Source of the DNA: a virus
Lineage: Duplodnaviria; Heunggongvirae; Uroviricota; Caudoviricetes
IMG/VR virus record: IMGVR_UViG_3300025162_000019
Coordinates: 138,826-189,489 of that record
Reading direction: 5' to 3' (one strand)
Length of the DNA: 50,664 nt
A program made the position numbers and the translations under genes. How positions within the stretch are numbered: the first letter of the stretch is position 1; each line of letters begins with the position of its first letter. This document shows, one piece after another, positions 1,929 through 50,417 of this stretch. The notes under the pieces were generated by a model that saw only the letters and a program-made list of their open reading frames with translations, did no database searches and was not told the origin of the DNA.

Positions 1929-3344
1929 TTATATTCTGGCCCATTTAACAATCAAATCGTTGACTTCTGTAAACCAACCATTCTTTTCCTCATGCTCATA
2001 TTCATAAATAAAATCTATAACATGATCCGAAAAGCCATTTATTAATGTCCAGTTTTTATCATATGTTAGACCTGAATCATATGTTGCAATGTTCATAATA
2101 TAACCCTTACTATTATTAGAAGGTAATGCTCTACCATCTGTTGATTGCTCATCTGTTATAACAATCACTCTATCATACTCTTCTTTACTCTTTAAATCGT
2201 TCAAAGAAGTTCTTAAAGCTGTTCCCATGTTAGGCTGATTATTAATAATAGAATCAGCTAATTCAAAACCATGATAGTTATTTCCTACAAGGGCTAATCT
2301 ATCAGAAAAGGTATATACAACACATTCATCGCACACTTCTCTTAAAAGAATAGCAAGTGCTGTTGCGGTATCAATCCTTTTTGTTTCAGACTTCCTTGCA
2401 GTAGCCCAAGTCATTGAACCAGATACATCAACAAGTAATGCAGTTTTACCAGATAACTTGTTAAATGTTCTAACACACTTTAACATCATATCTTCAAGTT
2501 CTTTCTTAATATCTACATCTGAAATATTCTTATATGCAGTATAGAATCTGAAAGGGAAAAGTTTTTCAACATTAGCCTTATGTAAAGCATCTATAATCGT
2601 ATACTTATCAAGACCAGCTTCTATCATACCTCTTATATTTTTGATCAAAGCCATAGCACCTAACTTATTATTCTTAATCAAATCCTCAAAAACATCTTTC
2701 TTATTTTCACCGGAAGATAAACGCACTTCCCAAGTATCAGGGATTTCTAATTTAGAATATTCACCATAAAATGCCTTGATTGGAAATCCTGCTTTTGTTA
2801 CTGTTGGAAAGAAATCTTTATTTACCAACTGAGCAAACATCTTTCCTTTTGTCATATTTTCAGGTTTAGCGTGGCACAAAAATGCCGCATCCCTCAACTG
2901 AACAGAGCCAGGGCCACTATCATTCTTATTCCATTTAGCTATCTGATACTCATTGAACTTATTGAAAGCCTTTGAAATACCTTTCTTTACCTGAGCAGAC
3001 AAAGAAGAATCTTTATCACTACCAGACCAATATAGTTTTAAGAACTCAATTATTTCATCAGGTCTTTGAATAATCTGATTTAAAGTATTACTTAAAATAG
3101 AAGGGGTATATGTCTTAGTATTACGAGCAAGCTCACGAATTAAAAGCAATGGTATTTTTCTTAAATGGAACTTATCTCTAGCTTCTATCGCAAGAGAGGC
3201 AACCATATAAGGATCGCATTGTTTAACCAATTCTTTTATTCTATTTGTACAAGATGCGCCTGATTCATAAAATGAATTTTCATTTAATAGGCAAGATAAT
3301 ACTGAACGTCTTAACTGAGCTTCTGAACTTAAATTTTCAAACAT
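1929..3344 (-). CDS. rsr: Ro60/Rsr ortholog (TROVE + vWA domain RNA-binding protein), about 471 aa
   Basis: LRRSVLSCLL-E-SFYE, LRKIPLLLIRELA, FNEYQIAKW, TWEVRLS (TROVE); DVSGSM and VITDEQ (vWA MIDAS). Start re-assigned from 3425 to ATG at 3344 (SD AGGAGA 8 nt upstream) because the longer start runs through a structured RNA unit. Confidence 0.93.
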   Translation of the reverse strand: MFENLSSEAQLRRSVLSCLLNENSFYESGASCTNRIKELVKQCDPYMVASLAIEARDKFHLRKIPLLLIRELARNTKTYTPSILSNTLNQIIQRPDEIIEFLKLYWSGSDKDSSLSAQVKKGISKAFNKFNEYQIAKWNKNDSGPGSVQLRDAAFLCHAKPENMTKGKMFAQLVNKDFFPTVTKAGFPIKAFYGEYSKLEIPDTWEVRLSSGENKKDVFEDLIKNNKLGAMALIKNIRGMIEAGLDKYTIIDALHKANVEKLFPFRFYTAYKNISDVDIKKELEDMMLKCVRTFNKLSGKTALLVDVSGSMTWATARKSETKRIDTATALAILLREVCDECVVYTFSDRLALVGNNYHGFELADSIINNQPNMGTALRTSLNDLKSKEEYDRVIVITDEQSTDGRALPSNNSKGYIMNIATYDSGLTYDKNWTLINGFSDHVIDFIYEYEHEEKNGWFTEVNDLIVKWARI

Positions 3345-3370
3345 AACATATTCTCCTTGAGTAAAGATTT

Positions 3371-3434
3371 GAGGAACAAATTGCATTGAGTGTTTTTTCA
3401 TTTTGTAGTTGAAGTAACTCAACACTCCGCCATC
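3371..3434 (-). ncRNA. Y-RNA (Yrl)-like structured RNA, unit 1
   Basis: GAUGGCGGA-GUGUUGAGU-UACUUCAACU...-ACUCAAUGC-AAUUUGUUCCUC; 9-bp stem with 2 G-U pairs; motif shared with units 2 and 3; lies directly upstream of rsr. Confidence 0.7.
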
Positions 3435-3653: not shown

Positions 3654-3682
3654 ATTATAACATATTACTTTTTATTTGTCAA
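3654..3682 (-). promoter_or_regulatory. consensus sigma70-type promoter for the Y-like RNA/rsr operon
   Basis: TTGACA (3682-3677), 17 bp, TATAAT (3659-3654), with extended -10 TG; predicted start near 3647, about 9 nt before unit 3. Confidence 0.85.
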
Positions 3683-31079: not shown

Positions 31080-31805
31080 TTATAATCCACCGGCTATACC
31101 TATACCAGCTTTACGAATTGTTTCTCTAACAGCACCTTGAGGTTGATCATATACATTAAAAAATTGATATGAAAAGGTTACATCGACTGTTGATACCTCA
31201 TTACTTCCATAATCTAATGAAACTTGCCCTATTGATTTTGGCCATGCATAATACAATTTATATACTGAAATAGTATTTCCTGTACTATTTAATAGATATG
31301 CTTCTTGATTTACCATAAGTGAACTAGGTTTTGATTGCATATTTGATATAGGATCACGCATCATTTTCTGCCAATCATGAAACTTTTTAAGTATATAACC
31401 CTCAGAATCCAAATTAAATGTAACAGTCCAATCTTCATATGTTTTATTTCCTGGCACTTTAAATGTATTTCCCATCCAAGTTGAAGTCATATCTTCAAAT
31501 GATGAAGATGGTAAACTAGATGATTTTACATAGAATGGTATATCAGCCATTGACATTTTTTTAGACATTGTACCTATTTGCATACCAGCAACATCTACTC
31601 CTGCTAATGCGCCCGCTTCAGCCCCTTTTATAATAGCATCTGTTGGATTTGTAAAAATACTTCCGCCGCCAGATAATCCAGCCTCTAAACCTGTTAATAA
31701 TGCATTACCAACGCCTGGAAATTGAATATTCATCCAAAACAAATATTGTCTTGAAACATCAGTAAATTTACTCTTATAAGTATTAATATCTATTTGTATA
31801 TTCAT
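31080..31805 (-). CDS. gp19-like tail tube paralog
   Basis: VKSSSLP, PGNKTYEDWTVTFNLD, WPKSIGQVSLDY, VDVTFSY. Confidence 0.85.
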   Translation of the reverse strand: MNIQIDINTYKSKFTDVSRQYLFWMNIQFPGVGNALLTGLEAGLSGGGSIFTNPTDAIIKGAEAGALAGVDVAGMQIGTMSKKMSMADIPFYVKSSSLPSSSFEDMTSTWMGNTFKVPGNKTYEDWTVTFNLDSEGYILKKFHDWQKMMRDPISNMQSKPSSLMVNQEAYLLNSTGNTISVYKLYYAWPKSIGQVSLDYGSNEVSTVDVTFSYQFFNVYDQPQGAVRETIRKAGIGIAGGL

Positions 31806-32458
31806 TATATCAATCCTGTAATTTTTCCGACTACACTTTTAATAATTTGATCTTTAAATGACTTTGTTATGCTACTAGTCTTTATAGGTTCAAAATAAGA
31901 ATAACTAAATGTAATTTGAACTGTTGCATGCTCATTTGAAGAATAATCTAAAGCAACTTCACCAATTGATTTAGGCCATGCATTAATTAATGTATAGCCA
32001 ACTACTGTATTACCTCGACCATCCAGCAAAAAGATTTGCTGATCCTCTACAATATCAGAAAATGTATTTCTATTAAACTCGCCATCTTGAATTAAATTAT
32101 TCCATTCATAAAATTTAGTTAATATTTCAGCATCCCCATCAATATTAAATGTTACAACCCAATCACTATATGTTTTAAATCCTGGCATTTTAAGAGTTAT
32201 AAACTGTATTTCATGCGATCTTTCTTCAAATTCTACTGCTGGTATATTAGCAGACTTAACCAAATATGGATATTTATCTCTTGCAGAACCAAATCCAAAT
32301 GGTGTAAGTGCTGAACTTACAGATTTTATTATACCTGTTAAAGCTGAATCACTAGAAGAAATCTCTGACGGAAAACTAAATAAACAATAAAATAAATTAG
32401 CTTTTTGAGCTTCTACAAATCTAGTTTTATATGTTTCTATATCTAACTGTACATTCAT
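31805..32458 (-). CDS. gp19-like tail tube paralog
   Basis: VKSANIP, PGFKTYSDWVVTFNID, AWPKSIGEVALDY, QITFSY. Confidence 0.85.
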   Translation of the reverse strand: MNVQLDIETYKTRFVEAQKANLFYCLFSFPSEISSSDSALTGIIKSVSSALTPFGFGSARDKYPYLVKSANIPAVEFEERSHEIQFITLKMPGFKTYSDWVVTFNIDGDAEILTKFYEWNNLIQDGEFNRNTFSDIVEDQQIFLLDGRGNTVVGYTLINAWPKSIGEVALDYSSNEHATVQITFSYSYFEPIKTSSITKSFKDQIIKSVVGKITGLI

Positions 32459-32475
32459 TTTTTCTCCAAAATAAA

Positions 32476-32519
32476 AAAGTCCAAAAGGTATATTTTTTTA
32501 ATATACCCTTTAGACTTTA
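32476..32519 (-). terminator. intrinsic terminator-like hairpin downstream of the major tube gene
   Basis: AAAGUCUAAAAGG-G-UAUAU / AUAUA-CCUUUUGGACUUU followed by a U-run; U-G wobble favours the minus strand. Confidence 0.7.
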
Positions 32520-32597
32520 AATCCGTTGAGTTAAGTATCTCAAGTGGGTAACAACATATATTTATGTTATTCTATGTAAACTGTCAATCTCTATTTA

Positions 32598-33131
32598 TTA
32601 AAATGTAACTCCTATCTCATATGAAGTCTTATCAATAACATGATAAATATATGAAAATGTAACCTGAACCTGTGCAACTTCACTTGCTGAATAATCTAAA
32701 TCAATAGTGCCAATAGACTTAGGCCATGCGCCAACTAATTTATATTTTATAGTTGTATTACCTTCATGGTCAAGTAGTTCTAATACCTGATCTGCCATAT
32801 AAGTGCTTGGTTTATTAGCCTTATTACTTGTTGGATCATGAATTAATCTAGCCCAATCATGAAGCGATTTAATAACATCAGATTCAGCATCAACATTAAA
32901 TGTAACTGTAAAATCAGAATAAGTATATTTTCCAGCAAACTTGAAATCAAATCCTTGCCAATTTGTTGTTATTTCTTCGGTAGTAGTTTCAGGTAAAGTA
33001 GTTGTTCTTACAAGATAAGTAAGTTTATCAACATTTGTAGTAATAGGAAAATTAGGCTTATAATAAAACAAATATTGTTTTGCTCCACCTTGAAATGACG
33101 CTCTATATGAATCTATGTTAAAATTAGGCAT
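32598..33131 (-). CDS. gp19: gp19 major tail tube protein
   Basis: 177 aa, first tube gene after the sheath; LVRTTTLP, AGKYTYSDFTVTFN, GAWPKSIGTIDLDY. Confidence 0.88.
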   Translation of the reverse strand: MPNFNIDSYRASFQGGAKQYLFYYKPNFPITTNVDKLTYLVRTTTLPETTTEEITTNWQGFDFKFAGKYTYSDFTVTFNVDAESDVIKSLHDWARLIHDPTSNKANKPSTYMADQVLELLDHEGNTTIKYKLVGAWPKSIGTIDLDYSASEVAQVQVTFSYIYHVIDKTSYEIGVTF

Positions 33132-34008
33132 TCTTTATACCCTCCAAAATAAAATTGTCTATCTTATTAAAAATATTATATCTATCATTTATTAACTCTT
33201 GCTCTTTAATAACAAGTATATTTATACCTTTCTTAAAACATTGTTTCTTTTTCATTTCATCATGCCATTTTACTTTATCGTTATTATGCCAGTATTCACC
33301 ATTATATTCTATAGCTTTTTTCATTTCAGGTAGCCAAATATCAAGTTCTAAATTTTTACCTGTCCAGTAATTTTTAACTTGCATTCTATCATTTTCTAAA
33401 ATAATACCTGAATATATTGTTTTAACGTATTCAACTATTTTCTTTTCTGGCTTAGAACCACCACTTATATTTTTACACAATGGGCATCTTTGACCCTGTT
33501 GAAAATCATTATATCTCATTAAAAATTGGTGCCCTTTAATACATTGTAATCTTAATTTAGATTTATTAGCTATGTATTCATTAGATAATAATTTATAATC
33601 AAAACTTTCTATGTACTCTTTAATTTCATTTAATATTTTCTTAGGCGTACCAAAACATTCAGGGCACCTTTGACCCGTATAAAAATTACCATATCTCATT
33701 TTAAATAAATGACCTTCAGGGCATTGTAATTTTAATTTAGAAAGAGCATTAATATATTCAGTAGATAATAATTTATAGTCAAAACTTTCAATATATTCTT
33801 TAACCTTTTCTATTGTAAGTTTTTTATTGCCAGCACATTCTGGGCATCTATGACCTTGTTGAAAATCACCATATTTTATATTAAATATATGATTTTCAGA
33901 ACACTGCAATTTTAATTTAGCCCTGCTATCTATATAAACACTATTTAATAACTTATACCCATTATCTTCAACATATTTTTTTACATCGACATAATCCAAC
34001 TTTTTCAT
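33124..34008 (-). mobile_element. free-standing putative homing endonuclease: 3 x C-x3-H-x14-C-x2-C modules plus PD-(D/E)XK/DUF559-like nuclease
   Basis: Repeats YKLLS-EY-N--SKLKLQCPEGH-F---Y--F--GQRCPEC; C-terminal LELDIWLPEMKKAIEYNGEYWH; inserted between gp18 and gp19. Confidence 0.8.
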
Positions 34009-35939: not shown

Positions 35940-36437
35940 TTATACAACTTCATATCTATCATAGGAAAATGTTACATCACCTTCTAACTGAGCTTCACCT
36001 TCCCTGTTAGATAATGTTATTTCTCCTAAAGATATTGGCCATATATTCTTAAACATAACCTTTTGTATAGTTTCGTGATAATTATTTGTTATAAGTAAAG
36101 AGGCATCAACCATATACTCATTTACTGGTCTTGTTGGCTTAATAGAATTATCAGTTATATACATTAACCAATCAAATAACAGTTTCCAGTTCTTTAGCTC
36201 TGAGTCCACAATATAATTTATAGTCCATTCACTAAAAGTAATACCGCCTACATGGAAATGCATCTTTTTTCCTTGCCAATCAGAATCAGTTGGCTCCAAT
36301 GCTACAGAAGGAATAATAGTACCATGAACATTCAATATAAATTCTTTATTTTCTCCTATAATTAATTTATGAGGTAATAAAGGAAATATCAATTCATAAT
36401 TACAAGCTGTACCTTTATTTAGATTTATATTATTCAT
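35940..36437 (-). CDS. gp3: gp3-like tail completion / tube terminator protein
   Basis: Tube-fold motifs (VHGTIIPSV, FSEWTINYIVDSELKNWKLLFDW, IWPISLGEI); follows gp15. Confidence 0.75.
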   Translation of the reverse strand: MNNINLNKGTACNYELIFPLLPHKLIIGENKEFILNVHGTIIPSVALEPTDSDWQGKKMHFHVGGITFSEWTINYIVDSELKNWKLLFDWLMYITDNSIKPTRPVNEYMVDASLLITNNYHETIQKVMFKNIWPISLGEITLSNREGEAQLEGDVTFSYDRYEVV

Positions 36438-37258: not shown

Positions 37259-37906
37259 TTAATAGCCATAAATTTTAGTATCTACATCACTATATGTATC
37301 TATCGCCACACTTTGTTCTTCAATATATTCATTATCACCAAATGCTGTAATAGATGGCGTTTCTGTTGTAATATTTGATGAAACACCAGCAGCGGATTCT
37401 GATTCTTCTGAATATCTGAAAGGCTTTAAATTTAATACCCAAATCAAACTTTTTAGCATAAAAATTTTATCATCTTGAGCCACATGAAGAACTTCAAAAC
37501 TTCTACTAAAATATGGTATATAAATAGCATCTCCAACTAAAGGAATGGTAGAACTATTAGCAGAATCGGGGTCTGTAGGATCAACATCACGCCTATAAAC
37601 TGACTGTGGAATGTGTGCTATAATAGAATCTGTTGCTAACATACCAAACATAGAATATACAGTAGGAACATCGCCTACATCATAGATAATCTTTGTTTCT
37701 TTTCCTTCAAGGTACTCAGCATTCTGTGTTTCACCATATAGCTGATCAGGTGGTACAGATGGATCACGCCTATAATATGTGCATGCAATCCCAGTTATAT
37801 CAGTAAATTCAGCAACAAGAGATTCAGCTAACTGATGGTCTGGATTATCAGTTAGATCATATAGATTCCAAGTAGGCTTGTTTAGTGAATCCTGTGGCAA
37901 TCTCAT
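37259..37906 (-). CDS. gp14: gp14 neck protein
   Basis: LVAEFTDITGIACTYY, LYGE, PLVGDAIY, FEVLHV, FRYSEE; position between gp13 and gp15. Confidence 0.85.
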   Translation of the reverse strand: MRLPQDSLNKPTWNLYDLTDNPDHQLAESLVAEFTDITGIACTYYRRDPSVPPDQLYGETQNAEYLEGKETKIIYDVGDVPTVYSMFGMLATDSIIAHIPQSVYRRDVDPTDPDSANSSTIPLVGDAIYIPYFSRSFEVLHVAQDDKIFMLKSLIWVLNLKPFRYSEESESAAGVSSNITTETPSITAFGDNEYIEEQSVAIDTYSDVDTKIYGY

Positions 37907-38759
37907 TTATTATCTCTATACTCCAACCATTATATTTTTTATTTCTCTTTAAATTATACGAAACAGTACTTCTATTAAGATTATTATCAACACAAAATTT
38001 TCTTAAACTATTTGTTATGTATTCAGTTCCTTCTGGTGATATAAACTTATACATATTCTTAACCATTTTTTCTCTTTGCTTTTCTTTTTGTTCATCGGTA
38101 ACAGGAACAGACTTTTTAACACCTATATGATTTTTGGACATTTTTTCTTTTATACTATCAGCCCGTTCTTTACCAAATCTATCTTCAAATGATTTATCTT
38201 TATTAGATTTATTATATTCACTAAAATTATAATTTACAACACCCTTTCTTTTTTCGCTGATTTTTTTTCTTACATCCAATCGTTTTGCTGGATTTTTATC
38301 ACCTAGCATATCAACCCTAATCTTACCATACATGGGGTTATTTTCACCAGAATTTAAAACACTTATTCTTTTACCCCATTCTTCTCTATATTCATCACTT
38401 ACATTAAGCCAATAGTTTTTATTACTTTCACTTATATTTTTTCGTGTATCTTCAGTAGGACACCAACCTAAGTTACCTTCGCCACCTAAAGTTAAATTAT
38501 AACCATTTGGCCTTTGTGTATTCAACTCTTTTATATAATATATTTCTCTTTCATTTAAATCATCTTTACTTAAACATTCACAAAGTATAGACCATTTAAA
38601 ATTCTCATTACCATATTTTCTTATTGCTCTATGTAAATAATAACTGCTATCATTTCTTACATCACATAAATGCTGTAATTTTCTTTTTTCTAAACTTTTT
38701 ACTGTTTGTCCAATATAACAACTACCATTTATTAGATTTTCAACTTTGTATATTAACAT
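37857..38759 (-). mobile_element. GIY-YIG (Seg-like) homing endonuclease with NUMOD3-like repeats
   Basis: LIYKVENLINGSCYIGQT, H..N, E...E..YI, NGYN; SGENNPMYGK; last 50 nt overlap the start of gp14. Confidence 0.92.
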
Positions 38760-39643: not shown

Positions 39644-41200
39644 TTAATTGATGTTATAATCCTGCAGCCAACTGAAGTCATCATCAGTTTCAGTAGATAC
39701 ATCACTCAAAAATCCCCATACTTCTTCTTCACTATTGTTATTGACAGGTTTAGAATCCATTAGATCATAATCATCTATAATGTTCATCTCTACAAAATAA
39801 CAAGCCCAATACAATGCAGAAACTAAATCATCTGGTAAATCCTTCCCCATAAAACGACCATTTGATTCAATAAAAGAACCTAACTGATATACTGTATCCT
39901 TATCATATATATCTACGCACTTATCTTCTATCAGTTTTTTCATTAATAGAACAGCTCTAGGTTTTGTATTTTTACTAGCTCTAATACCTAAGTCTGCATT
40001 TTTACTTCCAGTATTTACTAAGTTAGAGTTCTCAAATTCCCACCATAGTCTATTCACAACAGCAGAACCTTCTGAGTTATTTTCACACATAATATAAGCA
40101 TTGTTATAATAGTATGATAATCTATTTATAATCTCTGCGAACAAATAAACATCTGTCTGATTATCATTATATACGGCAACTTGTTGATACTTCAATGGTG
40201 TTAAACTTATAATCTTCATGATCTGTAATGTAGAAGCATTTTCACCAGTTCCTTTAGCAGTATCAGCACCAATAATATACTGTGCACCAGCTTCAGGTTC
40301 TTCATAAACAGAATACTTATTACCCATTTCTGTTTTTATAGGTTCTCTAACATTATCAAATAGGTATTCAAGTGTAACAGGGTCTATAACTGTATTTGTA
40401 GAACCTAAAAACTCACAGGCATATTCCTGAGTAAACTTTACCTTACCTAAGTTCTTTAATTGCTCTTGCGCCCAAGCCTCATCACGGCCAGGCACTTCTC
40501 TCCAAGTAACACGAATATGTTTAAATGTATTCTCTCCACGCTCTGCTTGACTGTATATCCTATGAAATAGATTGAACACTCCATTAGGTGTTGAAATAAG
40601 AATAATCTTTGCATCCTCAGAAGCTGAAATGGTCGGATAGTTGGCTGCCCAAAAATCTTCACATATACCTTTAGGAACGAATGCTATTTCATCACATATA
40701 AGTAAGTTGATTGTTCTACCACGGAAAGCATCAGGAGAAGTTGCGGATACTATTATTCTTGTACCATTATCAAATAAAATAAAAGTCTTAGAATATTCAC
40801 GGACACCCGGCTTTAACCATATTGGTAGCTCTTCATACATCAATTTAATTCTACTCATAATATCTATAGCTGATGTCTGCTTATTAGATACTATACCGAT
40901 TGTTTTATCAGAATTAAAGATTGAAAACCACAAAGCATAGACTGAAACAACAGTAGTTTTTCCAGCTTGTCTTGCGCATAGAGCACAAACAAATCTATTG
41001 TCTGCCATTTTTTTAAGAATTGTTTTTTGAAAGGAATAGGGTTCAAATTCAATTCGGCCCCTATCAGGATGGACAATCTTTATATATTGTAAAAAATTGT
41101 TTATATTTGTCGAACAATTTAATAAGGCTCTTACATCTTCAGGCTTATATTCAAACTGCTCCTCTGGCCTCTTCACATAATCATTATACTTAATACCCAT
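39644..41200 (-). CDS. gp17: gp17 terminase large subunit
   Basis: IVHPDRG, ARQAGKTT Walker A, LLICDE Walker B, STPNG, QEYACEF, IIGADTAKG, DDLVSAL. Confidence 0.97.
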   Translation of the reverse strand: MGIKYNDYVKRPEEQFEYKPEDVRALLNCSTNINNFLQYIKIVHPDRGRIEFEPYSFQKTILKKMADNRFVCALCARQAGKTTVVSVYALWFSIFNSDKTIGIVSNKQTSAIDIMSRIKLMYEELPIWLKPGVREYSKTFILFDNGTRIIVSATSPDAFRGRTINLLICDEIAFVPKGICEDFWAANYPTISASEDAKIILISTPNGVFNLFHRIYSQAERGENTFKHIRVTWREVPGRDEAWAQEQLKNLGKVKFTQEYACEFLGSTNTVIDPVTLEYLFDNVREPIKTEMGNKYSVYEEPEAGAQYIIGADTAKGTGENASTLQIMKIISLTPLKYQQVAVYNDNQTDVYLFAEIINRLSYYYNNAYIMCENNSEGSAVVNRLWWEFENSNLVNTGSKNADLGIRASKNTKPRAVLLMKKLIEDKCVDIYDKDTVYQLGSFIESNGRFMGKDLPDDLVSALYWACYFVEMNIIDDYDLMDSKPVNNNSEEEVWGFLSDVSTETDDDFSWLQDYNIN

Positions 41201-41205
41201 AAAAA

Positions 41206-41240
41206 AATCCTCCTAAACTATTTAGTTATTTAGGAGGATT
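41206..41240 (-). promoter_or_regulatory. 12-bp hairpin sequestering the AGGAGG SD of gp17, U-run tailed (terminator-like), with CTAAATA motifs in arm and loop
   Basis: AAUCCUCCUAAA-UAACUAAAUAG-UUUAGGAGGAUU-UUUUU-AUG. Confidence 0.7.
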
Positions 41241-41267
41241 ATGTATATTTTATAAATTGATTTATAG

Positions 41268-42800
41268 TTAACTCTTTTTTGGCGGCCTTATAGTTGGGTT
41301 TGTGTCTATTTTTACTTCATATCTTTTATCGCCTATTGTAGTAGAAAGAACTACTGGTCTACCCCAAAGAGTATAAATATGCTCTAAAGTTTTTACTGTA
41401 TTTAACTTATCCAACTCAATACCAGAAAAATCATGAGATAAATATAATGAGCCATCAAAATGATGATTTCCATCTATTATATTTATTTTGGGAATACCAC
41501 TATTAGAAAAACTATTTACAATCAGTTCCCTAATCTGAGCTGCTGTATGATCTGTTCTAACATAGTCTACAGTATTTGCATAATCTGCACTTGGGACTTC
41601 AGTATAAATATACATATCCAACTTATCAATGACATCTTCTGTAAGAAAATCCTGCATAAAGAACCAATCTGTATATGTTCTCATTACATCCTTACACTTT
41701 TCAAAGCCACCCATTTCCTTTGTATCCCACTCTTCTTTTAACTTGTAATCACTACATTCCATATATTCTTTACCATGACGACCTTTATCCCATCTTTCCT
41801 CAATATGCTCCCACATACCAGAGCCAATAAGATACGGATTCATACTATATCTACTCATAGCTTTTACAAGTGAGTTGGAATAGTTATACTGCCCATGCTC
41901 TTCTGCTGTTAATAGTTCTTCATCAAATAGTTTATTCATAATCTTCTGATGAATGAATGTAGCCCAACCCTCATTCATATACCTTGACCTCATAATAGGC
42001 CAATAATACTGACCCTCAATTCTCAAGATTTCAAGAATGTCCTTCTGCCAATCTTCTAAAATGCGTGAGTTATCAATAATAAATCTAAGCAAATCTTCAG
42101 TAGGCTCAACAGGAATCTGCTGTTTCAGTTCTCTCCATAAACGATTATTCATTAAATCAATAGACGCATCGTCAACAAAAGCATCAACAGATTTATGGGT
42201 ATCTGTTAAATCACCAAAAGAAGATAGATTAGTAATCTTCCTTTTTTCTTTCATCTGATCAAATACACGCAACCTTTTTTCTTCTTCTGTTTCATTATCA
42301 AAAGGACTTGAATGAAACTGAATAGAATGCGCTGCATCTACAATCTTTTCAACCTCACCAATACCATACATTCTTTCGTATTCATTAAATCGTTTAGAAC
42401 CTTCCCTCATAACACTCATTATATCATTACGATTATTGATAAACCATTTACTTTCCGTAAAGAAATTTGTATGGCCATAAACATGGGCAATAACCAATGC
42501 CTGTACTGCCAATGTATTACTATCCATTAAGTATGCTCTTGCAGGATTATCATGTATTACAACTTCATATGGTAGACTATCACCATATAAATCATAAAGT
42601 GTTTTATTCTTCTCATAATCTCGCCCATACTTCCAGTTAGATATATTTGTAGGAAGTCTATATGCCATAATCTCAAGCATCCTCTGAGGTGGGATAACAT
42701 CAAACTCTACATCAACACTTTTCAACTTCATATCATCAAAAAGTATTTGTTTAATCCTGTCCTCAATTTTAATAAGTCTTTGTAAATTACCCTTTTCCAT
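41268..42800 (-). CDS. spoVR: SpoVR/YcgB family protein
   Basis: YEVVIHDNPARAYL, LVIAHVYGHTNFF, QYYWP..RSRYMNEGWATFIH, NPYLIG, HIYTLWG. Confidence 0.95.
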   Translation of the reverse strand: MEKGNLQRLIKIEDRIKQILFDDMKLKSVDVEFDVIPPQRMLEIMAYRLPTNISNWKYGRDYEKNKTLYDLYGDSLPYEVVIHDNPARAYLMDSNTLAVQALVIAHVYGHTNFFTESKWFINNRNDIMSVMREGSKRFNEYERMYGIGEVEKIVDAAHSIQFHSSPFDNETEEEKRLRVFDQMKEKRKITNLSSFGDLTDTHKSVDAFVDDASIDLMNNRLWRELKQQIPVEPTEDLLRFIIDNSRILEDWQKDILEILRIEGQYYWPIMRSRYMNEGWATFIHQKIMNKLFDEELLTAEEHGQYNYSNSLVKAMSRYSMNPYLIGSGMWEHIEERWDKGRHGKEYMECSDYKLKEEWDTKEMGGFEKCKDVMRTYTDWFFMQDFLTEDVIDKLDMYIYTEVPSADYANTVDYVRTDHTAAQIRELIVNSFSNSGIPKINIIDGNHHFDGSLYLSHDFSGIELDKLNTVKTLEHIYTLWGRPVVLSTTIGDKRYEVKIDTNPTIRPPKKS

Positions 42801-43711
42801 TATGACATCCTTTCTATTAAATCGTTTATTTTATTTAAATAACATACCTTATCATCATACCAATCTTGCTCTTTGATAACTAATAAATCTATATTTTTCT
42901 TTATACATTGTTTCTTCTTCATTTCGTCATACCATTTTGACTTATCACTAGAATGCCAATATTCACCATTAAACTCTATTGCTTTTCTTACATCAGGTAA
43001 AAATATATCCAATTCAAGATTTTTACCCGTCCAATAGTTTTTTACTTGTGTTCTATCATTTTCTAAAATAGTACCCGAATAAATAGTTTTGACATATTCA
43101 GCAATTTCTTTTTCTGGTTTAGACCATCCTTTAACTAGAGCACATTCAGGGCATCCGCAATTTTGATTTTTAAAACGTCTAAAATACATTTTAAAAATAT
43201 GTCCTTCAGGGCATTTCAACTCTAATATAGATGAATTGTTTTTATACTTGCCTGACAGCCACACATAATTTCTATCTTTAATATATTGCATAACATCTAT
43301 TAATGATGCTCTTTGTATGATGCTTCTTCTTTTATTAAAACATTCCAAACATCTATGTCCTTGCTGAAAGTCATTAAATCTTTTTTTAAATATATGACCT
43401 TCAGGACATTGTAGTTCTAATATAGAAAAGGCATTTATATATTCACCAGATAACCATTTAAAGCTAAAATCTTCTATACGATTTTTAACATTAATATATT
43501 CTAATCTTTGACTATTACCTCTCATTTTATTATTACATTCAGGGCATCTATAACCTCTTTGAAAAACATTATATATTACTTTATAAATATGACCTTTTGG
43601 GCATTGTAGTTCTAATTTTTCTTTACTATTTTTGTATTCAGTAGATAGAAGTTTATAGTTGAAACTTTCTATATAACTTTTAACTTCTTCTAATGTATAC
43701 TTCCTATTCAT
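42800..43711 (-). mobile_element. free-standing putative homing endonuclease: 3 Zn-finger modules plus PD-(D/E)XK/DUF559-like nuclease
   Basis: Same architecture as 33124..34008; LELDIFLPDVRKAIEFNGEYWH; TAATG-coupled at both ends. Confidence 0.8.
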
Positions 43712-45054
43712 TATGCCTTCCTTTCAAACAAAATATGCTTAATTGCACTATAAATATGGGATTTATTTCTAATCTCACACATCACAAAATGATTAGCGTC
43801 ATCCTTATAGAAGTTCGTGCCATTTTCCGTAGTCATAGCAAATTTAAATGTCTTAATATATTCCTTTAACAATGTATTTGGCGACCATCCGGCTCCATAA
43901 ACAGGACTAAATGAATTATCCTCATCTTCAACACCATTTACTTCGCAATAAGCTAACATATTCACACTCTTATTTAACATTTCCTTTGTTGATTTCATTG
44001 TTCTATCAAAGTTAAAATCTTCACCATCAGATGCGTAGATTACATATCTATTCCATGCTTCTTCAGGGTATTCAGTATCTAATGCGTAGTTAGCCAAATC
44101 AAATGCTGTATGGCAGTTAGTTCCGCCAGATTCACCCTTCTTAAAAAATTCGTCCTCAGAGACAAACTGAGCCTCTGTAGTATGAGTAATAAACCTAATC
44201 ACAACATTATCATATGACTTCTTCAAAAACTCATTTATCCAAAACAATAATGACCTTACAAGATACTTCTTATTACTATCCATAGAACCTGATGTATCAA
44301 TCATTGCGATAATAACGCAGTTAGATAGTGGTGTCATCTGTTCTTCTGGTACTCTAAACCTTAAATCATCATCTTCGATATACAACTGCTCTGGATCAAT
44401 AGAACGATCCAATATATTATTCTTTATGATTAAAATAGCTTCTTCCAAATCGCCAAAAGATTGAACCAATGCCTGTGAAGCCTCTGTTTCAGTACAACCA
44501 GTATCTTCCATTATTTCTTTAATGAAAAGGCTAGTTCGTAACATTGTTTCTTTTAAAGTCTTTTTCTTATGTAGTCTAGGCTGAATACCTATCTTAGATG
44601 TAGTTTCAAACTTCCAGCCAGTAGGAACTAGCATACTTTTATCAGATGTTTTTTCTTCAATGTATGGTAGACCCAAGTCCTCAAACATTAACTGAATGAT
44701 TTGTTCAATATCAATTTCAGTTTCCATATAATCTTCACCCATCTGATCACCTGGCTCATCACTACCACCGTCACTCTTTACTTTCCTTCTACCGATTACA
44801 TCACCTGGCTTTCCTTCACCTTGTCCCACACCGCCAGAACCTTCGTCATTTCTACCATAGACAAAACGATAGTCCTTAAGACCCTTAATAGGAACCTTTA
44901 CTTTACCATTCTTTCCTTTAGTAATAATGGATTCTTCACCAATAATGTCCTTAACTTGGCCTCTAATAACAGCATCAACTTTTTGTCTATGCCTTTCAGC
45001 ATCCTTTTTTCCTTTCTCAGAAAACTGCCAATCACCATCAGCTACTATTGTCAT
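43711..45054 (-). CDS. yeaH: YeaH/YhbH (DUF444) vWA-domain protein
   Basis: DAERHRQKV, LKDYRFVYG, GVGQGEG, LFEDLGLP, IAMIDTSGSM, SGGTNC, ASDGED. Confidence 0.93.
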   Translation of the reverse strand: MTIVADGDWQFSEKGKKDAERHRQKVDAVIRGQVKDIIGEESIITKGKNGKVKVPIKGLKDYRFVYGRNDEGSGGVGQGEGKPGDVIGRRKVKSDGGSDEPGDQMGEDYMETEIDIEQIIQLMFEDLGLPYIEEKTSDKSMLVPTGWKFETTSKIGIQPRLHKKKTLKETMLRTSLFIKEIMEDTGCTETEASQALVQSFGDLEEAILIIKNNILDRSIDPEQLYIEDDDLRFRVPEEQMTPLSNCVIIAMIDTSGSMDSNKKYLVRSLLFWINEFLKKSYDNVVIRFITHTTEAQFVSEDEFFKKGESGGTNCHTAFDLANYALDTEYPEEAWNRYVIYASDGEDFNFDRTMKSTKEMLNKSVNMLAYCEVNGVEDEDNSFSPVYGAGWSPNTLLKEYIKTFKFAMTTENGTNFYKDDANHFVMCEIRNKSHIYSAIKHILFERKA

Positions 45055-45082
45055 ATGAATCCTCTTTTCTATATTTTAAGTT

Positions 45083-45111
45083 ATTATATCATATAACTTG
45101 TTATTTGTCAA
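45083..45111 (-). promoter_or_regulatory. consensus sigma70-type promoter upstream of yeaH
   Basis: TTGACA, 17 bp, TATAAT with extended -10 TG; 26/29 nt identical to the rsr promoter. Confidence 0.85.
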
Positions 45112-45754
45112 TAACCAATTTTTCCAAATATTCGTTAAACATACTCTCATAATCTTCTTCATGCTTTTTTATAGAATAATGGCAGTTTTCACATAAAGTC
45201 ACACCATTATTTTTATTATATATTAAATCTCTATATAATGCAAATCTTTTAATATGGTGTGCTTGTAACTTATATCCTCTTTCATTACACATAACACAAG
45301 TATAGTTATCCCTTTCAAATACAGATGTTCTCCATTCCTTATATTCTTTAGAACAATATATCTTAGTATTTTCTGAAGTTATACCACCCTTCCAATTACC
45401 ATTTAATTCACCTATTCTTTTTGAACTATTTAATGCACATTTTGCTTTGAAATCATCATTCATTTTTTTACCTAAATTTGCTTGACTGATTTTCTTAGCA
45501 GTTTCTTCCGATATACCATACATTGCATTTCTTTTTTTAGCATTACACGAAAAAGAACAACAACAACCTTTATTACCACTACAATAAAAAAACTTTTCAC
45601 CACATACTTCACAAGGAGCATCACTTAAAATATATACAGTCATTCTCCAAGGATTTTCAGCTGTCGGATTATCTTTATACCATTTACCTGTTTTTTCATT
45701 AAATCTTAATACTTTTAATCCTTCTTCATACTTCATAAATAAAAATACCTCCAA
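45101..45754 (-). mobile_element. HNH homing endonuclease
   Basis: CVMC...QAHHIKRF...NGVTLCENCH; NUMOD3-like ETAKKISQANLGKK and GELNGNWKGG. Confidence 0.9.
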
Positions 45755-45774
45755 TAAAATTTCCTTACTGAAGG

Positions 45775-45782
45775 TATTTATA
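45775..45782 (-). promoter_or_regulatory. late promoter TATAAATA for the HNH gene
   Basis: Exact consensus, intergenic, upstream of GGAGG SD. Confidence 0.5.
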
Positions 45783-45826
45783 TATTTCCTTTGTTGGGGA
45801 AACTATGTTGATTTTTCCGTACTATA

Positions 45827-47782
45827 TCACTCCTTGCGCAAAATTTCTCCAACGAAACTTAACAGGATTTTGGCACATTCCTCACAATAGCCATTCTTCT
45901 TCAATCGTTCAATAACAGTAGTCCTACGAGCTTTAGACTTCAAATCTGTACTAGACTTGTCTGCGATTGTCAAACTTACAACATTCTTCAAATCGGACAT
46001 AAGTTTCTTCTCAATAGCTGTTCTCAACGGGTCATAGTCTTTGAAAGTAAACTCCTTACCTCTTTCAAGCTGAGAAGATTTATACACGAAAATACCCTGT
46101 CTAAACTCTGTCTTAGCATTTACTGGAACACTGATAAACTCTTCAATCTGCCTCATCAACTTTTCATCAGGGTCGGAATACTCGCCGGTAATAGAATCCA
46201 TTACCTTCTCTTTCTTACAATAAGCCGAAGCGTTTAACAAATAGTTATCAAACAAAGATTGTGCCTGCTCTTCATATGCCGACATAAAAGACATATTTAC
46301 TTCTTTCTTTGCAATCTCTTTATACTCAGAGCTTACAGACTCTTTTTCAGAAAGTAAAAGATTAATAAAACGCTTCCTATCTTCTTCAGAAATACCAATG
46401 TGATGATCAAAGTTGGACTTCAAACCTCTAATAATATCAATAGGATTAATACATTTCTTATCCTCTTTCATACCAAGAGAAATGTTAATGGCGTTAATAA
46501 TAAATCTCGGAGAAATACCACTCATGCCTTCACCCTTCTCACGGCCTTCCTGTAGAAGTTGTTTAACATCAAGATTCTGCTTCCTCATTTCTTCAGTAAT
46601 CTCACCATTATAAATCTTCATCTTATCCAATAGAGAGTTTACCTTAGCTGTGGGAATAAGGCGAGAAAGAATAGCAAACTGTGCCGCAACCCTTAATGTA
46701 TTAGGTGCGATATGAATACCTCTAAAAGAAGATTCACCAATCATCTTTTCATAAATCTTAACCTCATCATCAATTTTAAGATTCCAAGGAACCATTACAG
46801 GATACATTCTATCATGTAGTGCTTCATTCTTCTTATCAGACTTAAATGTATCAAACTCTGTCTGGTTAGTATGACTCAAAACCAAAGTATCAATATACAT
46901 CTGAGGAAAGCCTGGTGTTTTAATAAGTTGTTCCTGTGCTACTGTAATAAATACATACAGAAGTTTAGTATCAACTTTAATCATTTCAATCATTTCAATC
47001 ATACCACCATTAGCTACCTGCAACTCACCATTAAACTGATATGCTCTTGGGTCTGTTTCACCATAACGAGTAATCTTAGAAAGATTTACTCTACCAATAA
47101 GTTCGGAAATATCCTGACTCTTAGGATCGGAAGGTGAAAATGTTGCAATACCAACACGGTCATGCTCAGATAATGCAATCTTCTCTACCAAAACATTTTC
47201 CCATTGTACATTGCCATCTTCAGACATATAGTTTGCTTCAATATTCTGTTTGCATACAGGACATAATGTTCCTTCAATCTGAACACCTAGTTCCTTTTCC
47301 CAATATGGCCTATCAACTTCAGGAATCAAATGTAATGGTTCCTCATGAATTGGGCAATCCTTAATTGCGTACTTAGGTGTCTTATCTCTTTCCAAACCCT
47401 TTTTAATCAAGGAAGCGATTGTTGATTTACCAGAACTAACTGGGCCAACCATGATCAAAATACGTTTTCCTGTTTCTGTTCTATGAGAGGCTGCTTTCAA
47501 GAAACGCATCAAATCATGAATAGGCTCAAGAGTACCATAAATCTTCTTATCAAAAAACTTATAACGAACCAAATCTTCATAACTTCTTGTCTTGAATGCA
47601 TCATCAACAGGTTCTGTGCCATAAGACATGATCATATTATAAATACGACCCGGCGCAAATTGTGCGATATAAGGATTTTCTTTTACAAAATTAAAGTAAT
47701 CAAGACAAGTGCCTTCCCATTTATTGTTTTCCTTTTTACTTCTCTGCTCAAGAATCACATTCCTAAAATCAACATTATTCAT
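45827..47782 (-). CDS. prkA: PrkA/YeaG AAA+ serine kinase (about 651 aa)
   Basis: GPVSSGKST, CPIHEEPLHLIP, FSPSDPKSQDISEL, DPRAYQFNGEL, GEGMSGISPRF, GYCEECA; start at MNNVDF (AAGGAG SD). Confidence 0.96.
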   Translation of the reverse strand: MNNVDFRNVILEQRSKKENNKWEGTCLDYFNFVKENPYIAQFAPGRIYNMIMSYGTEPVDDAFKTRSYEDLVRYKFFDKKIYGTLEPIHDLMRFLKAASHRTETGKRILIMVGPVSSGKSTIASLIKKGLERDKTPKYAIKDCPIHEEPLHLIPEVDRPYWEKELGVQIEGTLCPVCKQNIEANYMSEDGNVQWENVLVEKIALSEHDRVGIATFSPSDPKSQDISELIGRVNLSKITRYGETDPRAYQFNGELQVANGGMIEMIEMIKVDTKLLYVFITVAQEQLIKTPGFPQMYIDTLVLSHTNQTEFDTFKSDKKNEALHDRMYPVMVPWNLKIDDEVKIYEKMIGESSFRGIHIAPNTLRVAAQFAILSRLIPTAKVNSLLDKMKIYNGEITEEMRKQNLDVKQLLQEGREKGEGMSGISPRFIINAINISLGMKEDKKCINPIDIIRGLKSNFDHHIGISEEDRKRFINLLLSEKESVSSEYKEIAKKEVNMSFMSAYEEQAQSLFDNYLLNASAYCKKEKVMDSITGEYSDPDEKLMRQIEEFISVPVNAKTEFRQGIFVYKSSQLERGKEFTFKDYDPLRTAIEKKLMSDLKNVVSLTIADKSSTDLKSKARRTTVIERLKKNGYCEECAKILLSFVGEILRKE

Positions 47783-48248
47783 CTTTCTCTCCTTCAATTA
47801 GTTTAGCATCTATTAATTTTTTATCAACTTTTAACATTCTTAATATTGTTTCTCTATCTGTTACAATAATATTTTGATTTCTCACACCAGTATTCTTATC
47901 TAAGATTTTTAATTTCACTAGTGTTTCTTTTTCTTTTAATTCTAACATTTTTTCTTTCAAAAGTAAATCACAATTTTGCGTATTTTTTTTATTTATAATT
48001 TCAACCGCCGAATTAATATTTGCTACCATATAACTGGCAACTTCTACTAATCGTGCAGAGAACCCGCCTGAACCCATTTCAGATAATATTTGATCTAATA
48101 TCTGATTAGCCTTTGATATATTTTTTTCCATTATATCATTTGGATTATTCACATCTACATCATTTGTTTGTGGTATACTATCATCAGGATTAAGTCTAAA
48201 ATCCATACCAAACTCATCTGCTAAATTCTCTCTATCTAAATCAGGCAT
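47775..48248 (-). CDS. gp16: putative gp16 terminase small subunit
   Basis: 157 aa; SARLVEVASYM helical core and C-terminal NQNIIVTDRETILRML resemble T4-like gp16; upstream of gp17 module. Confidence 0.6.
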   Translation of the reverse strand: MPDLDRENLADEFGMDFRLNPDDSIPQTNDVDVNNPNDIMEKNISKANQILDQILSEMGSGGFSARLVEVASYMVANINSAVEIINKKNTQNCDLLLKEKMLELKEKETLVKLKILDKNTGVRNQNIIVTDRETILRMLKVDKKLIDAKLIEGEKDE

Positions 48249-48943
48249 CTTACACCTATTAACTCATTTATTTTGTTTAAACAACATAACTTATCATTAT
48301 ACCAATCTTTATCTTCTATAACTAATAAATTAATACCCTTTTGTATGCATTGCTTTTGTTTCATTTCATCATACCATTTAGTTGTATCGTTTGAATGCCA
48401 CCATGTTCCATTAAACTCTATTGCTTTAGAAAGTTCAGGTAAAAATATATCTAATTCAAGATTTTTACCAGTCCAAAAGTTCTTAATTTGTGTTCTGTCA
48501 TTTTCTACAACATCACCAGAATAATTCTCTTTAACATATTCAGCAATTTCCTTTTCTGGCTTAGACCATTTTAATACTGACGAACATTCAGGGCATCTTC
48601 TCCCTTGTTGAAAATGATTATATGATGCTTTATATATATGGTTTTCTGAACATTGCAATTCTAATTTATCTTTACTACTTTTATAAATAGTTGATAATAA
48701 TTTATATCCATTACATTCTATATATTCTTTAACACTTTTATATTCTAAATATTTACTATTACTATAACATTCAGGGCATCTATTTCCTCTTTGAAAATTA
48801 TTATATCTCATTTCAAATACATGACCGACAGAACATAATATTCTTAATTTAGTCAAAGCATTTTTATATTCTGTTGATAAAAGTTTATACTTATAACTTT
48901 CAATATCTTTTTTAACATAATCTATTAAATGCTTTCTATTCAC
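48236..48943 (-). mobile_element. free-standing putative homing endonuclease: 2 Zn-finger modules plus PD-(D/E)XK/DUF559-like nuclease
   Basis: Same family as 33124 and 42800; LELDIFLPELSKAIEFNGTWWH. Confidence 0.8.
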
Positions 48944-48968: not shown

Positions 48969-48997
48969 ATTATACCTTATATTTATACAAATGTCAA
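48969..48997 (-). promoter_or_regulatory. consensus sigma70-type promoter with a late promoter (TATAAATA, 48980-87) nested in its spacer
   Basis: TTGACA (48997-92), 17 bp, TATAAT (48974-69). Confidence 0.75.
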
Positions 48998-49001
48998 GTA
49001 T

Positions 49002-50417
49002 TTATTTCATTACAAATTTTATATTACCACAATCATAGATTCTATCCCAACCTTGTTCTTGCATTATATCCCATTCAGTTTGAGTATCTTGTGTAGCTAA
49101 ATGCCTTATCTTATCTTTCCTAAAATTAAAACGATGTATTCTCTTTAGCACATCATACTTAAAATACCAATAATTAGGTTCAGTTAAACTCACTTGTGTA
49201 AATCCAATTTTAGAATACACATTACCTTCCGACCACCGCCTATCAGCATATGAATAAATTTCAACCCAACAATAATTTCTCTTAAAAAATTCTAATAACT
49301 TACCAGCAATGCCTATTATACTTTTAGATGTACAAAATCTACTTAATTCCCATACACCATCGACATTTTTAGACCCTTTTGATATATTACCTCTAGCAAA
49401 AGTCATTACAGAAACAAGTTCATCATTATAGTATGCACCTAATTTTATAGATGATGGTGTATAACCCTGTATATGGTATAATTCAATAAAAGACTTTGCT
49501 ATAGTTGTTTCTATTTCTCTTATAATGCACTTCCTTGCGTAAAGTTTTTCATCTGATAAACCTATTATATGCTTTAATCTGTCCTTTACAATATCATTTT
49601 TAAATAACCATTCATCTTCAAAAATAGTTATTAATCTATATCCCTGTTCATTACATAGTTCCAATTTTTTAAGATGATATTTTTTATCTGGCTTCTTTAA
49701 ATTACCATGCCAATATAAACCACAATATTCTATAGCGATTTTTTTATCTGGTATTACTATATCTAGTTCTAAAGGTCTTATTATTTTTCTATCATTACAT
49801 ATAATACTTAAATTAAAAGTTTGTATATATTCTAATATTTCTTTTTCAGCATTAGAAATTGACATAGAGCATTCATAACATCTATGCCCCTGCTTAAAAT
49901 CATTCCAAATCTGCCATCTATCATGCCCATTATTACAAATATATCTAACTTTAAAATTTTCACCTTTTATATTTCCACTTTTTTCTATATATTCATAATC
50001 AGCATCTTTTAAAGCATTTATAATATCATTTTCTTTTGTAGATGAACTAATGGACTTTTTTAATCTCGTATCTTCATTTTTCATGGGGTTATTAATACTT
50101 AAATTTAATTTTCTTTCTATATTACCAGACCATGATTTTTTTGTAGCGGACGAAATTTTTTCACTCATACTTTCTCTATATTCATTATCAGCCCATCGCA
50201 ACTTAGATGAGATAGATTGTTTTTCTTTTACATCTTCTCTATTAGCTGTATGTCTGTTTCTACATGGCCTGCAAAAATGGCCATCATTCTGTTTTAAATA
50301 TATTCTATACTGCTGTTGAACTTCAATACCACAAATATCGCAGTTAAAAATAATTTCCTTATGACTCCCACTCTTTAATAAAGATACATCACCATTGTCT
50401 ACTCTTCTTATTAGCAT
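49002..50417 (-). mobile_element. multidomain endonuclease-like protein: Zn ribbons, DUF559-like nuclease and Hef-like C-terminal domain
   Basis: CDIC..FCRPC, CNNGH..RCYEC, ELDIVIPDKKIAIEYCGLYWH, CIIREI..YHIQGY..WELSRFC..YADRRWSEGNVY..IYDCG. Confidence 0.75.

Follow-up and report, generated by a model that had tools for sequence, protein, structure and literature searches.

A phage copy of the PrkA-YeaH-SpoVR module

The cellular operons prkA-yhbH-spoVR and yeaG-yeaH-ycgB, known from B. subtilis, E. coli and numerous further bacteria and archaea, encode the PrkA/YeaG-YeaH-SpoVR trio, which is among the most widespread bacterial modules of still unknown biochemistry. The yeaG, yeaH and ycgB genes show a cofitness of r > 0.7 in six bacteria (bioRxiv 10.1101/072470), starvation-induced and largely non-specific degradation of cytoplasmic proteins needs YeaG and supplies amino acids and ATP (PMC13684143), and the proteolysis of casein by Bacillus subtilis PrkA depends on ATP and on its Walker A motif (PMC9512850). 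YeaG was linked to bulk proteolysis under starvation in a 2026 study that did not identify the machinery. Here, the module is described in a 50,664-nucleotide stretch of the IMG/VR virus record IMGVR_UViG_3300025162_000019 (hereafter the window), corresponding to bases 53337-104000 of a 127,545-bp linear viral contig with a CheckV completeness of 57%. The trio of the window resembles the cellular one in its three Pfam families and in having the gene order of most bacterial operons; the Walker A motif, the MIDAS and the invariant residues of SpoVR are all kept, and the Firmicutes type is the nearer one. Based on the results presented below, it is close to certain that the window carries a genuine, intact and phage-inherited PrkA-YeaH-SpoVR module.

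A preliminary description, made from the DNA letters alone, had reported full-length prkA, yeaH and spoVR with intact motifs at 41268-47782, and this is borne out by the Pfam matches and by the conserved columns of each protein. PrkA matches PF08298 at 2.6e-107 (359 bits) and PF06798 at 7e-70 (236 bits), against cut-offs of 25, and aligns with its only solved homologue, PDB entry 9xip, at E=7.8e-127 over residues 26-653; a literature search returned no paper describing that structure. In this alignment, the Walker A motif GPVSSGKST pairs with GPVGSAKST in 9xip, the FSPSDPKSQD block is present and aligned too, and the P-loop is intact, with a lysine equivalent to K108 of B. subtilis and with G118, K119 and S120 in columns at least 95% conserved. 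YeaH is a full-length DUF444 protein (PF04285, 1e-82, 279 bits) whose MIDAS (DxSxS..T..D) is complete, D253, S255, S257, T312 and D343 all being invariant. Similarly, SpoVR matches PF04293 at 6.2e-93 (312 bits) and SpoVR_C, PF24755, at 7e-11 (42 bits). When 44-62 phage and cellular homologues were aligned per protein and the columns conserved to at least 95% were counted, PrkA was found to keep 56 of 57 such columns, YeaH 36 of 37, the MIDAS residues among them, and SpoVR 39 of 40, including H106, H110, E151, D155, N276, E277, G278 and H284. The true start of prkA is the ATG at 47782, which is preceded by GGAG and overlaps the stop codon of the upstream gene, orf157 (ATGAATAA).

All three proteins score below the cut-offs of the NCBIfam equivalogs: PrkA reaches 301 bits against the 576 of NF011999 (the E. 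coli YeaG equivalog) and is thus a family member and not an equivalog, YeaH reaches 316 bits against the 468 of its best match, TIGR02877 spore_yhbH, and SpoVR reaches 205 bits against the 679 of NF008737. The best named cellular matches of PrkA are from Firmicutes, at 40-43% identity, versus 27-30% for the gammaproteobacterial type; the earlier remark that PrkA stands closer to the Bacillus type is therefore supported, and the best NCBIfam match of YeaH agrees with it.

The preliminary description had itself named chimerism with host DNA as the finding that would overturn it. An assembly chimera or host contamination is virtually excluded, because one and the same PrkA sequence is present on at least 23 contigs from separate assemblies (the longest 197,316 bp), with one gene order from gp21 to gp14 in the places shown, and because 19 diverged relatives are syntenic. 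In addition, phage structural genes flank the trio on both sides, the guanine-plus-cytosine content is even across the locus (0.30-0.33), and no cellular PrkA among those found exceeds 43% identity.

A scan of IMG/VR yielded 43 loci, 19 of which constitute clade A. The order orf157-PrkA-YeaH-SpoVR-TerL-gp13, in which TerL is the large terminase subunit, is kept in clade A wherever the genes fall within the contig; the sole departure, L014, has no TerL in the 5.8 kb beyond SpoVR. In 18 of the 19 loci, orf157 is the gene immediately preceding prkA; the L021 sequence begins within prkA, and L014 has no orf157 within 10 kb upstream. Identity to the window is 63-74% for PrkA, 57-66% for TerL, 51-63% for SpoVR, about the same (50-58%) for YeaH and 31-42% for orf157, so that PrkA is the best-conserved protein of the neighbourhood, and this conservation above the terminase shows that phages benefit from the module when they infect. 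At 64-74% identity, more than 120 clusters are present in the protein database, on contigs of up to 270 kb. One clade-A PrkA (P0116, 64% identical) is labelled at NCBI as belonging to a metagenome-assembled genome of 'Candidatus Hodarchaeales archaeon'; this label probably reflects the binning of a phage contig with an Asgard archaeal genome.

Beyond clade A, the order is YeaH-SpoVR-PrkA beside a phage GroEL gene in clade B (approximately 37% identical; contigs up to 211 kb), and the bacterial order is found beside Ro60-like, Thg1 and tail-fibre genes in clade C (27-30% identical; contigs up to 336 kb). The nearest representatives outside clade A, 42-48% identical, are on phage-like contigs, one of them within a helicase/DnaB/DnaC replication operon. 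PrkA is also encoded by the isolated Thermus phages phiYS40, TMA, phiLo, MN1 and Lalka and by the Ralstonia phage RsoM2USA. Besides the window, all clade-A loci that extend far enough, and most clade-B, clade-C and cellular loci, have the three genes together. In a midpoint-rooted FastTree phylogeny of 153 PrkA sequences, separate branches are occupied by clades A, B and C and by the Thermus phage, which indicates at least four phage lineages. What these data describe is a phage version of the cellular module that is old and has been passed on vertically, fixed between the small-terminase-like and large-terminase genes in one clade of T4-like phages of about 200 kb. As a side observation, clade-C jumbo-phage contigs carry a gene for a Ro60-like RNA-binding protein (phrog_850) a few kb upstream of the trio (L040:3737-5356; L034:4403-6082), and the phage of the window also encodes Ro60, at 1929-3425; the co-occurrence of Ro60 and the trio, both stress-type modules, in unrelated phages may not be accidental.

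Models of SpoVR and of its pairing with YeaH

The AlphaFold2 (AF2) model of SpoVR is confident, with a predicted local distance difference test score (pLDDT) of 86.9 and a predicted template modelling score (pTM) of 0.84. When the model was searched exhaustively with VIA-align, nearly all of the top 50 matches, which cover residues 1-~395, were catalytic domains of zincin metallopeptidases, among them DUF885-type proteins, M1 aminopeptidases, LTA4 hydrolase, M3, M32, thermolysin and ACE, with Z-scores of 6-12.9, a range within which helical models may also match by chance. Foldseek gave nothing at E <= 0.001 for the same model against the PDB, and a sequence search of the PDB returned no match for YeaH or SpoVR. 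The ligand spacing of gluzincins, H106xxxH110 ... E151xxxD155, is present. Since the list of matches is uniform and this spacing is conserved, the core of SpoVR is likely zincin-derived, as a resemblance at the level of the fold. On the other hand, the general-base Glu of HExxH is absent: the motif reads HVYGH here, with Val throughout the family. For this reason, a canonical zincin mechanism is excluded and SpoVR is not assigned as a zincin peptidase; any catalysis would have to be non-canonical. A literature search returned no paper linking 'SpoVR' with 'zincin'.

A controlled prediction of a YeaH-SpoVR complex reached an interface score (ipSAE) of 0.73 (0.73, 0.67 and 0.73 in the individual runs), versus 0.00 for the best control; the mark applied is reached by 58 of 80 solved complexes and by 2 of 110 mismatched pairs. 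At least 83% of contacts are common to the runs, and the partner has a pLDDT of at least 81. Because neither protein has a solved homologue detectable by sequence, this result does not stem from memorised structures. On the YeaH side, the predicted interface comprises residues 11-25 and 58-93, including the family-wide motif RGLKEYRFxYG, and leaves the MIDAS domain free; on the SpoVR side, it comprises residues 39-63, 147-163, 315-324 and 394-474, and thus takes in the C-terminal domain. The modelling supports binding of SpoVR by YeaH as a prediction only.

Transcription signals, locus position and possible functions

The reading favoured here, which is held tentatively and at slightly less than an even chance, is that the trio forms an AAA+/MIDAS/zincin-like machine that degrades or remodels cytoplasmic proteins of the host. 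PrkA would act as the ATP-driven AAA+ motor, YeaH as a MIDAS/vWA adaptor whose conserved N-terminal segment would clamp the C-terminal side of SpoVR, and SpoVR as a zincin-like metal-binding subunit, which may be a pseudo-peptidase that holds substrates or a peptidase of non-canonical type. With strong host-type sigma-70 promoters of its own, and late promoters in addition, the trio would unfold and degrade, or remodel, host proteins in bulk, mirroring the YeaG-dependent degradation of proteins in starved E. coli, and the amino acids and energy freed in this way would support virion synthesis in nutrient-poor, slow-growing hosts. A bolder version, which is on balance somewhat unlikely, would make SpoVR, as a zincin-derived metalloprotein held by the N-terminus of YeaH and supplied by the PrkA motor, the missing hydrolytic or substrate-holding subunit of PrkA/YeaG. 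Entire clades of large phages would turn on this proteasome-like trio from host-type promoters and liquidate the host proteome for amino acids and energy, as a counterpart of the degradation of host DNA by T4.

Several points weigh against the favoured reading. The flux of starvation-induced protein degradation (SPD) in E. coli is a few percent per hour, which is slow compared to a typical lytic cycle. The range of the SpoVR Z-scores and the loss of the general-base Glu, both given above, tell in the same direction, and, given the sub-threshold NCBIfam scores, the proteins may not be functionally equivalent to those of E. coli or Bacillus. B. anthracis PrkA alone has negligible protease and kinase activity in vitro (PMC13001217). 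A literature search returned no paper on the function of a phage-borne trio. Finally, the fixed site of the trio between orf157 and TerL in clade A is unexplained by a host-directed role.

The transcription signals of the module are of two kinds. Perfect TTGACA-N17-TATAAT promoters occur three times in the window, where 0.15 would be expected, and five times in the whole 127.5-kb contig, and two of these five precede units of the module; in three relatives (L003, L005 and L006), an 11/12 sigma-70-like promoter lies 23-31 nt before orf157. The late-type motif TATAAATA occurs 18 times on the gene strand, with 8 of the 18 copies in intergenic DNA at 17-64 nt upstream of a start codon, even though such DNA makes up 3.6% of the window, while none of the 16 copies on the opposite strand is intergenic. 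One copy precedes the HE235-orf157-prkA unit, another precedes the HNH-yeaH unit, and in six relatives the motif stands directly before TerL. The yeaH promoter and the Ro60/Y-RNA promoter at 3654-3682 have almost the same 17-nt spacer (TTGACAAATAA.AAGT.ATATG.TATAAT), which suggests a phage-specific family of early promoters linking two host-directed modules, Ro60/Y-RNA and yeaH. The hairpin between spoVR and TerL (-16.4 kcal/mol, z = -4.28) may be a terminator and/or a translational gate for the terminase. From the sigma-70 and late motifs and the hairpin, all of them motif matches, we infer that the module is transcribed by the unmodified host polymerase early as well as late and is insulated from TerL.

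Strong sigma-70 promoters would also fit an early take-over device as opposed to a nutrient recycler. The trio would then be selective, with its remodelling or degradation confined to a single specific host factor or a few of them, for instance a regulator, a defence protein or ribosome-hibernation factors. Pairs of AAA+ and vWA-MIDAS proteins usually act on specific clients, as is established for the MoxR type, and the phenotypes of mutants in the cellular trio vary by species (bioRxiv 10.1101/072470). Such selectivity is nevertheless considered unlikely: no client is known, PADLOC found no match for the module or its neighbours and no link to defence, and the E. coli data indicate non-specific turnover (PMC13684143).

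The principal idea of the preliminary description was of another kind, namely that the phage manipulates host dormancy or persistence; in this reading, Ser/Thr kinase signalling by PrkA would push the host into, or keep it out of, a dormant, sporulating or persistent state. It is true that the cellular trio is tied to sporulation in Bacillus and to nitrogen or carbon starvation (PMC4664914, PMC9512850), and that the proteins described here are of Firmicutes type. Kinase activity of PrkA, however, went undetected in the hands of two groups (PMC9512850, PMC13001217), the genes are spread over at least four unrelated phage lineages that include Thermus, Ralstonia and marine-type phages with non-sporulating hosts, and nothing in this analysis indicates a sporulating host. 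Manipulation of sporulation or dormancy is thus not specifically supported, the module being widespread in non-sporulators and its link in E. coli being to bulk starvation proteolysis (PMC13684143) and not to any defined switch into dormancy, and we regard it as quite improbable.

The position of the trio has to be weighed separately. It had been placed between gp16 and gp17; the gp17 side holds, TerL being 34-36% identical to cyanophage gp17, and the gp16 side rests with orf157. This protein has no Pfam, PHROG or BLAST match, and tblastn against the phage collection gave nothing even at E <= 1. With a profile of 12 orthologues, the first match among 177,635 PDB sequences is the small terminase of the T4 family (3txq/3txs), at only E=0.053, the alignment spanning the oligomerisation helices (S-x-R-x-V-E-V...Q-L). 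The AF2 model of orf157 is a long helical hairpin (pLDDT 64.5), for which Foldseek returned generic helical hairpins only from the PDB. In view of this E-value and the uninformative Foldseek search, the location of the trio between the terminase genes is probable and not proven.

A role in virion morphogenesis or DNA packaging, in which the AAA+/vWA machine would be a chaperone for assembly of the head, terminase or neck, would account for a place between the small (TerS) and large terminase subunits. In its favour, clade A shows no variation in the order orf157-trio-TerL, translation of prkA is coupled to that of orf157, late-promoter motifs are present, and about 4 kb separate the trio from TerL in the Thermus phage YS40. 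Against such a role, clades B and C and the nearest relatives outside clade A have no terminase in the flanks examined (up to 10 kb), the neighbours in the other clades being GroEL, Ro60-like, Thg1, tail-fibre or replication genes. Furthermore, the module has sigma-70-type promoters of its own, unlike the surrounding structural genes, a hairpin and U-run separate it from TerL, TerL has its own late promoter in six relatives, and the cellular homologues work in the absence of any virion. The terminase-side position is thus peculiar to clade A, and assembly of the virion, which had also been proposed in the preliminary description, is not specifically supported and appears very doubtful. The more general suggestion of a repurposed AAA+/vWA remodelling machine comes close to the reading favoured here, with the difference that its targets would be host proteins and not the virion.

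Should host-protein degradation prove to be the function, it would represent a new class of auxiliary function, the recycling of the host proteome, with relevance to phage ecology in nutrient-poor waters. The phage trio offers a compact, host-independent version of the module for reconstitution, and concrete mutants of the phage, E. coli and Bacillus proteins can be designed from the predicted contact between YeaH and SpoVR and from the zincin-like core of SpoVR.

Neighbouring and passenger genes

The features of the locus are collected in Table 1. Every gene near the trio is on the minus strand, and the order of transcription is HE235 - orf157 - PrkA - HNH - YeaH - HE303 - SpoVR - TerL. The bacterial order of the trio, as noted in the preliminary description, is therefore kept, but the three genes are not contiguous, since HNH217 and HE303, which that description had not mentioned, are interposed; the start and stop of HE303 overlap both of its neighbours, yeaH and spoVR.

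Table 1. Genes and transcription signals of the locus and inteins of relatives (window coordinates unless a relative is named)
Feature	Position	Strand	Description
HE235	48236..48943	-	235 aa; free-standing, homing-endonuclease-like; CapR/DUF4379 zinc finger and MTES_1575 nuclease; phrog_559
orf157	47775..48248	-	157 aa; probable T4-type small terminase subunit (gp16-like)
prkA	45827..47782	-	651 aa; AAA+ ATPase domain and PrkA C-terminal kinase-like domain
HNH217	45101..45754	-	Free-standing HNH homing endonuclease between prkA and yeaH; PF01844, phrog_119
yeaH (DUF444)	43711..45054	-	447 aa; vWA-like domain, complete MIDAS, conserved N-terminal docking segment
HE303	42800..43711	-	303 aa; homing-endonuclease-like, CapR/DUF4379/MTES_1575 type; phrog_559; between yeaH and spoVR
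spoVR	41268..42800	-	510 aa; zincin-like helical domain (residues 1-~395) and SpoVR_C domain
Large terminase (TerL), T4 gp17 type	39644..41200	-	Terminase_6N 1.6e-19, Terminase_6C 3.1e-8
Perfect sigma-70 consensus promoter	48969..48997	-	TTGACA-17-TATAAT; 25 nt upstream of HE235/orf157/prkA unit
Perfect sigma-70 consensus promoter	45083..45111	-	Extended -10 TG; 28 nt upstream of yeaH ATG
TATAAATA late-type motif	48980-48987	-	Inside spacer of the 48969..48997 promoter
TATAAATA T4-type late-promoter motif	45775..45782	-	20 nt upstream of HNH gene
13-bp hairpin, then U-run	41201..41241	-	Between spoVR and TerL; 3' arm holds TerL Shine-Dalgarno
Homing-endonuclease genes	33124-34008, 37857-38759, 42800-43711, 45101-45754, 48236-48943, 49002-50417, 50411-51286		
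PrkA intein	L015:8651-10000		After residue 226, FSPSDPK|SQD
SpoVR inteins, same site	L005:6322-7398, L019:16885-18054		After ~residue 281, inside invariant NEGWAxxxH
TerL intein	L006:12603-13925		

The trio lies inside a morphogenesis block of the form gp20-gp21-gp22-gp23 ... gp17-gp13-gp14-gp15-gp18. Upstream are the portal gp20, the intein-bearing prohead protease gp21, the scaffold, the major capsid protein gp23 and more endonuclease genes, and downstream are gp13, a GIY-YIG endonuclease, the neck protein gp14, the sheath stabiliser, tube proteins, the sheath and the baseplate hub. With homologues of gp23, gp20, gp21, gp22, gp17, gp13, gp14, gp15 and gp18 in one block, and with matches to T4-type markers (Gp23 at 1.4e-105, Portal_T4 at 9.7e-100, Peptidase_S77 and T4_CASP), the phage belongs to the T4-like (Straboviridae-type) phages. 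Besides the sheath gene, the block contains four tail-tube (phrog_45) paralogues, three of them in tandem (window 31080-33131, 35940-36437).

Free-standing homing-endonuclease genes are exceptionally dense in this block, with seven in about 18 kb, comprising five paralogues of the CapR/DUF4379/MTES_1575 type, one HNH and one GIY-YIG gene; at its C-terminus, the 471-aa copy weakly matches Mom (E=6.9e-6), just under the cut-off. As is characteristic of free-standing homing endonucleases, those interleaved with the trio lie between conserved genes and are polymorphic for presence and absence among relatives: homologues of HNH217 occur in L003-L006 and L020 and are absent in L007-L012 and L017, those of HE303 are variable among clade-A loci, and HE235 is absent at its site in most relatives. 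In addition, genes that are split in relatives, tested for open through-reading, contain in-frame inteins of 359-450 aa that end in HN (Table 1), and, judging from representative sequences in the database, phage PrkA has at least three additional intein sites, around residues 220, 270 and 300. The 2.4-kb insert in the TerL gene of L005 (L005:8919-11372) has 24 stops in the through-read and is therefore not a simple intein; an Rfam scan of the window and of three split-gene loci, this insert included, found no group I intron. The gp21 prohead protease (Peptidase_S77) carries its intein, with a LAGLIDADG domain, at L076:3793-5466 (contig 107292-108965), just past the end of the window. Inteins typically home to functionally critical sites, which argues that the motifs they interrupt in PrkA and SpoVR matter. 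The interleaved endonucleases and the inteins of the relatives are selfish passengers that target conserved phage genes.

Comparison with known systems

Unlike the cellular trio, that of the window resides in a lytic-type T4-like phage, probably between the terminase genes, and its PrkA is at most 43% identical to the named cellular PrkA proteins found. The cellular genes are under RpoS/NtrC or sigma-E control, whereas those of the window have phage consensus sigma-70 and T4-late-type promoters, are interleaved with homing endonucleases and fall below every NCBIfam equivalog cut-off.

Two further systems are related at the level of architecture or fold. In the MoxR-type AAA+/vWA-MIDAS pairs (RavA-ViaA, CbbQ-CbbO and NorQ-NorD), the ATPase gene lies beside that of a MIDAS vWA client adaptor. 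PrkA differs in being a distinct AAA+ family with a kinase-like C-terminal domain and in having SpoVR as an obligatory third subunit, and the vWA protein YeaH is predicted to bind SpoVR through its N-terminus. In the gluzincins (M1, M3, M4 thermolysin and M32; DUF885), the catalytic domains superpose on residues 1-~395 of SpoVR at Z 8-12.9 and share the HxxxH ... ExxxD arrangement, whereas SpoVR has Val in place of the HExxH Glu and no match at the level of sequence.

Phage-borne PrkA, YeaH and SpoVR have already been annotated in Thermus and Ralstonia phages and assigned to PHROG families (22605, 19072 and 35217), and are functionally unstudied. The public copies, all of which include PrkA, are those of the Thermus phages phiYS40/TMA/YS40_Isch, phiLo, MN1 and Lalka, the Ralstonia jumbo phage RsoM2USA, whose genome paper annotates SpoVR as ORF28 and PrkA as ORF30 (PMC8504454), and huge uncultured phages (LR7565xx); within the stretches examined, all three genes are found only in YS40_Isch. 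These copies differ from that of the window in being 27-37% identical, in falling on separate branches of the PrkA tree and in their genome context; the order in phiYS40 is YeaH-SpoVR-x-PrkA, and none of them has been reported between TerS and TerL. What the locus described here adds to these systems is the consensus sigma-70 promoters, the load of endonucleases and inteins, the zincin-like model of SpoVR and the predicted YeaH-SpoVR interface.

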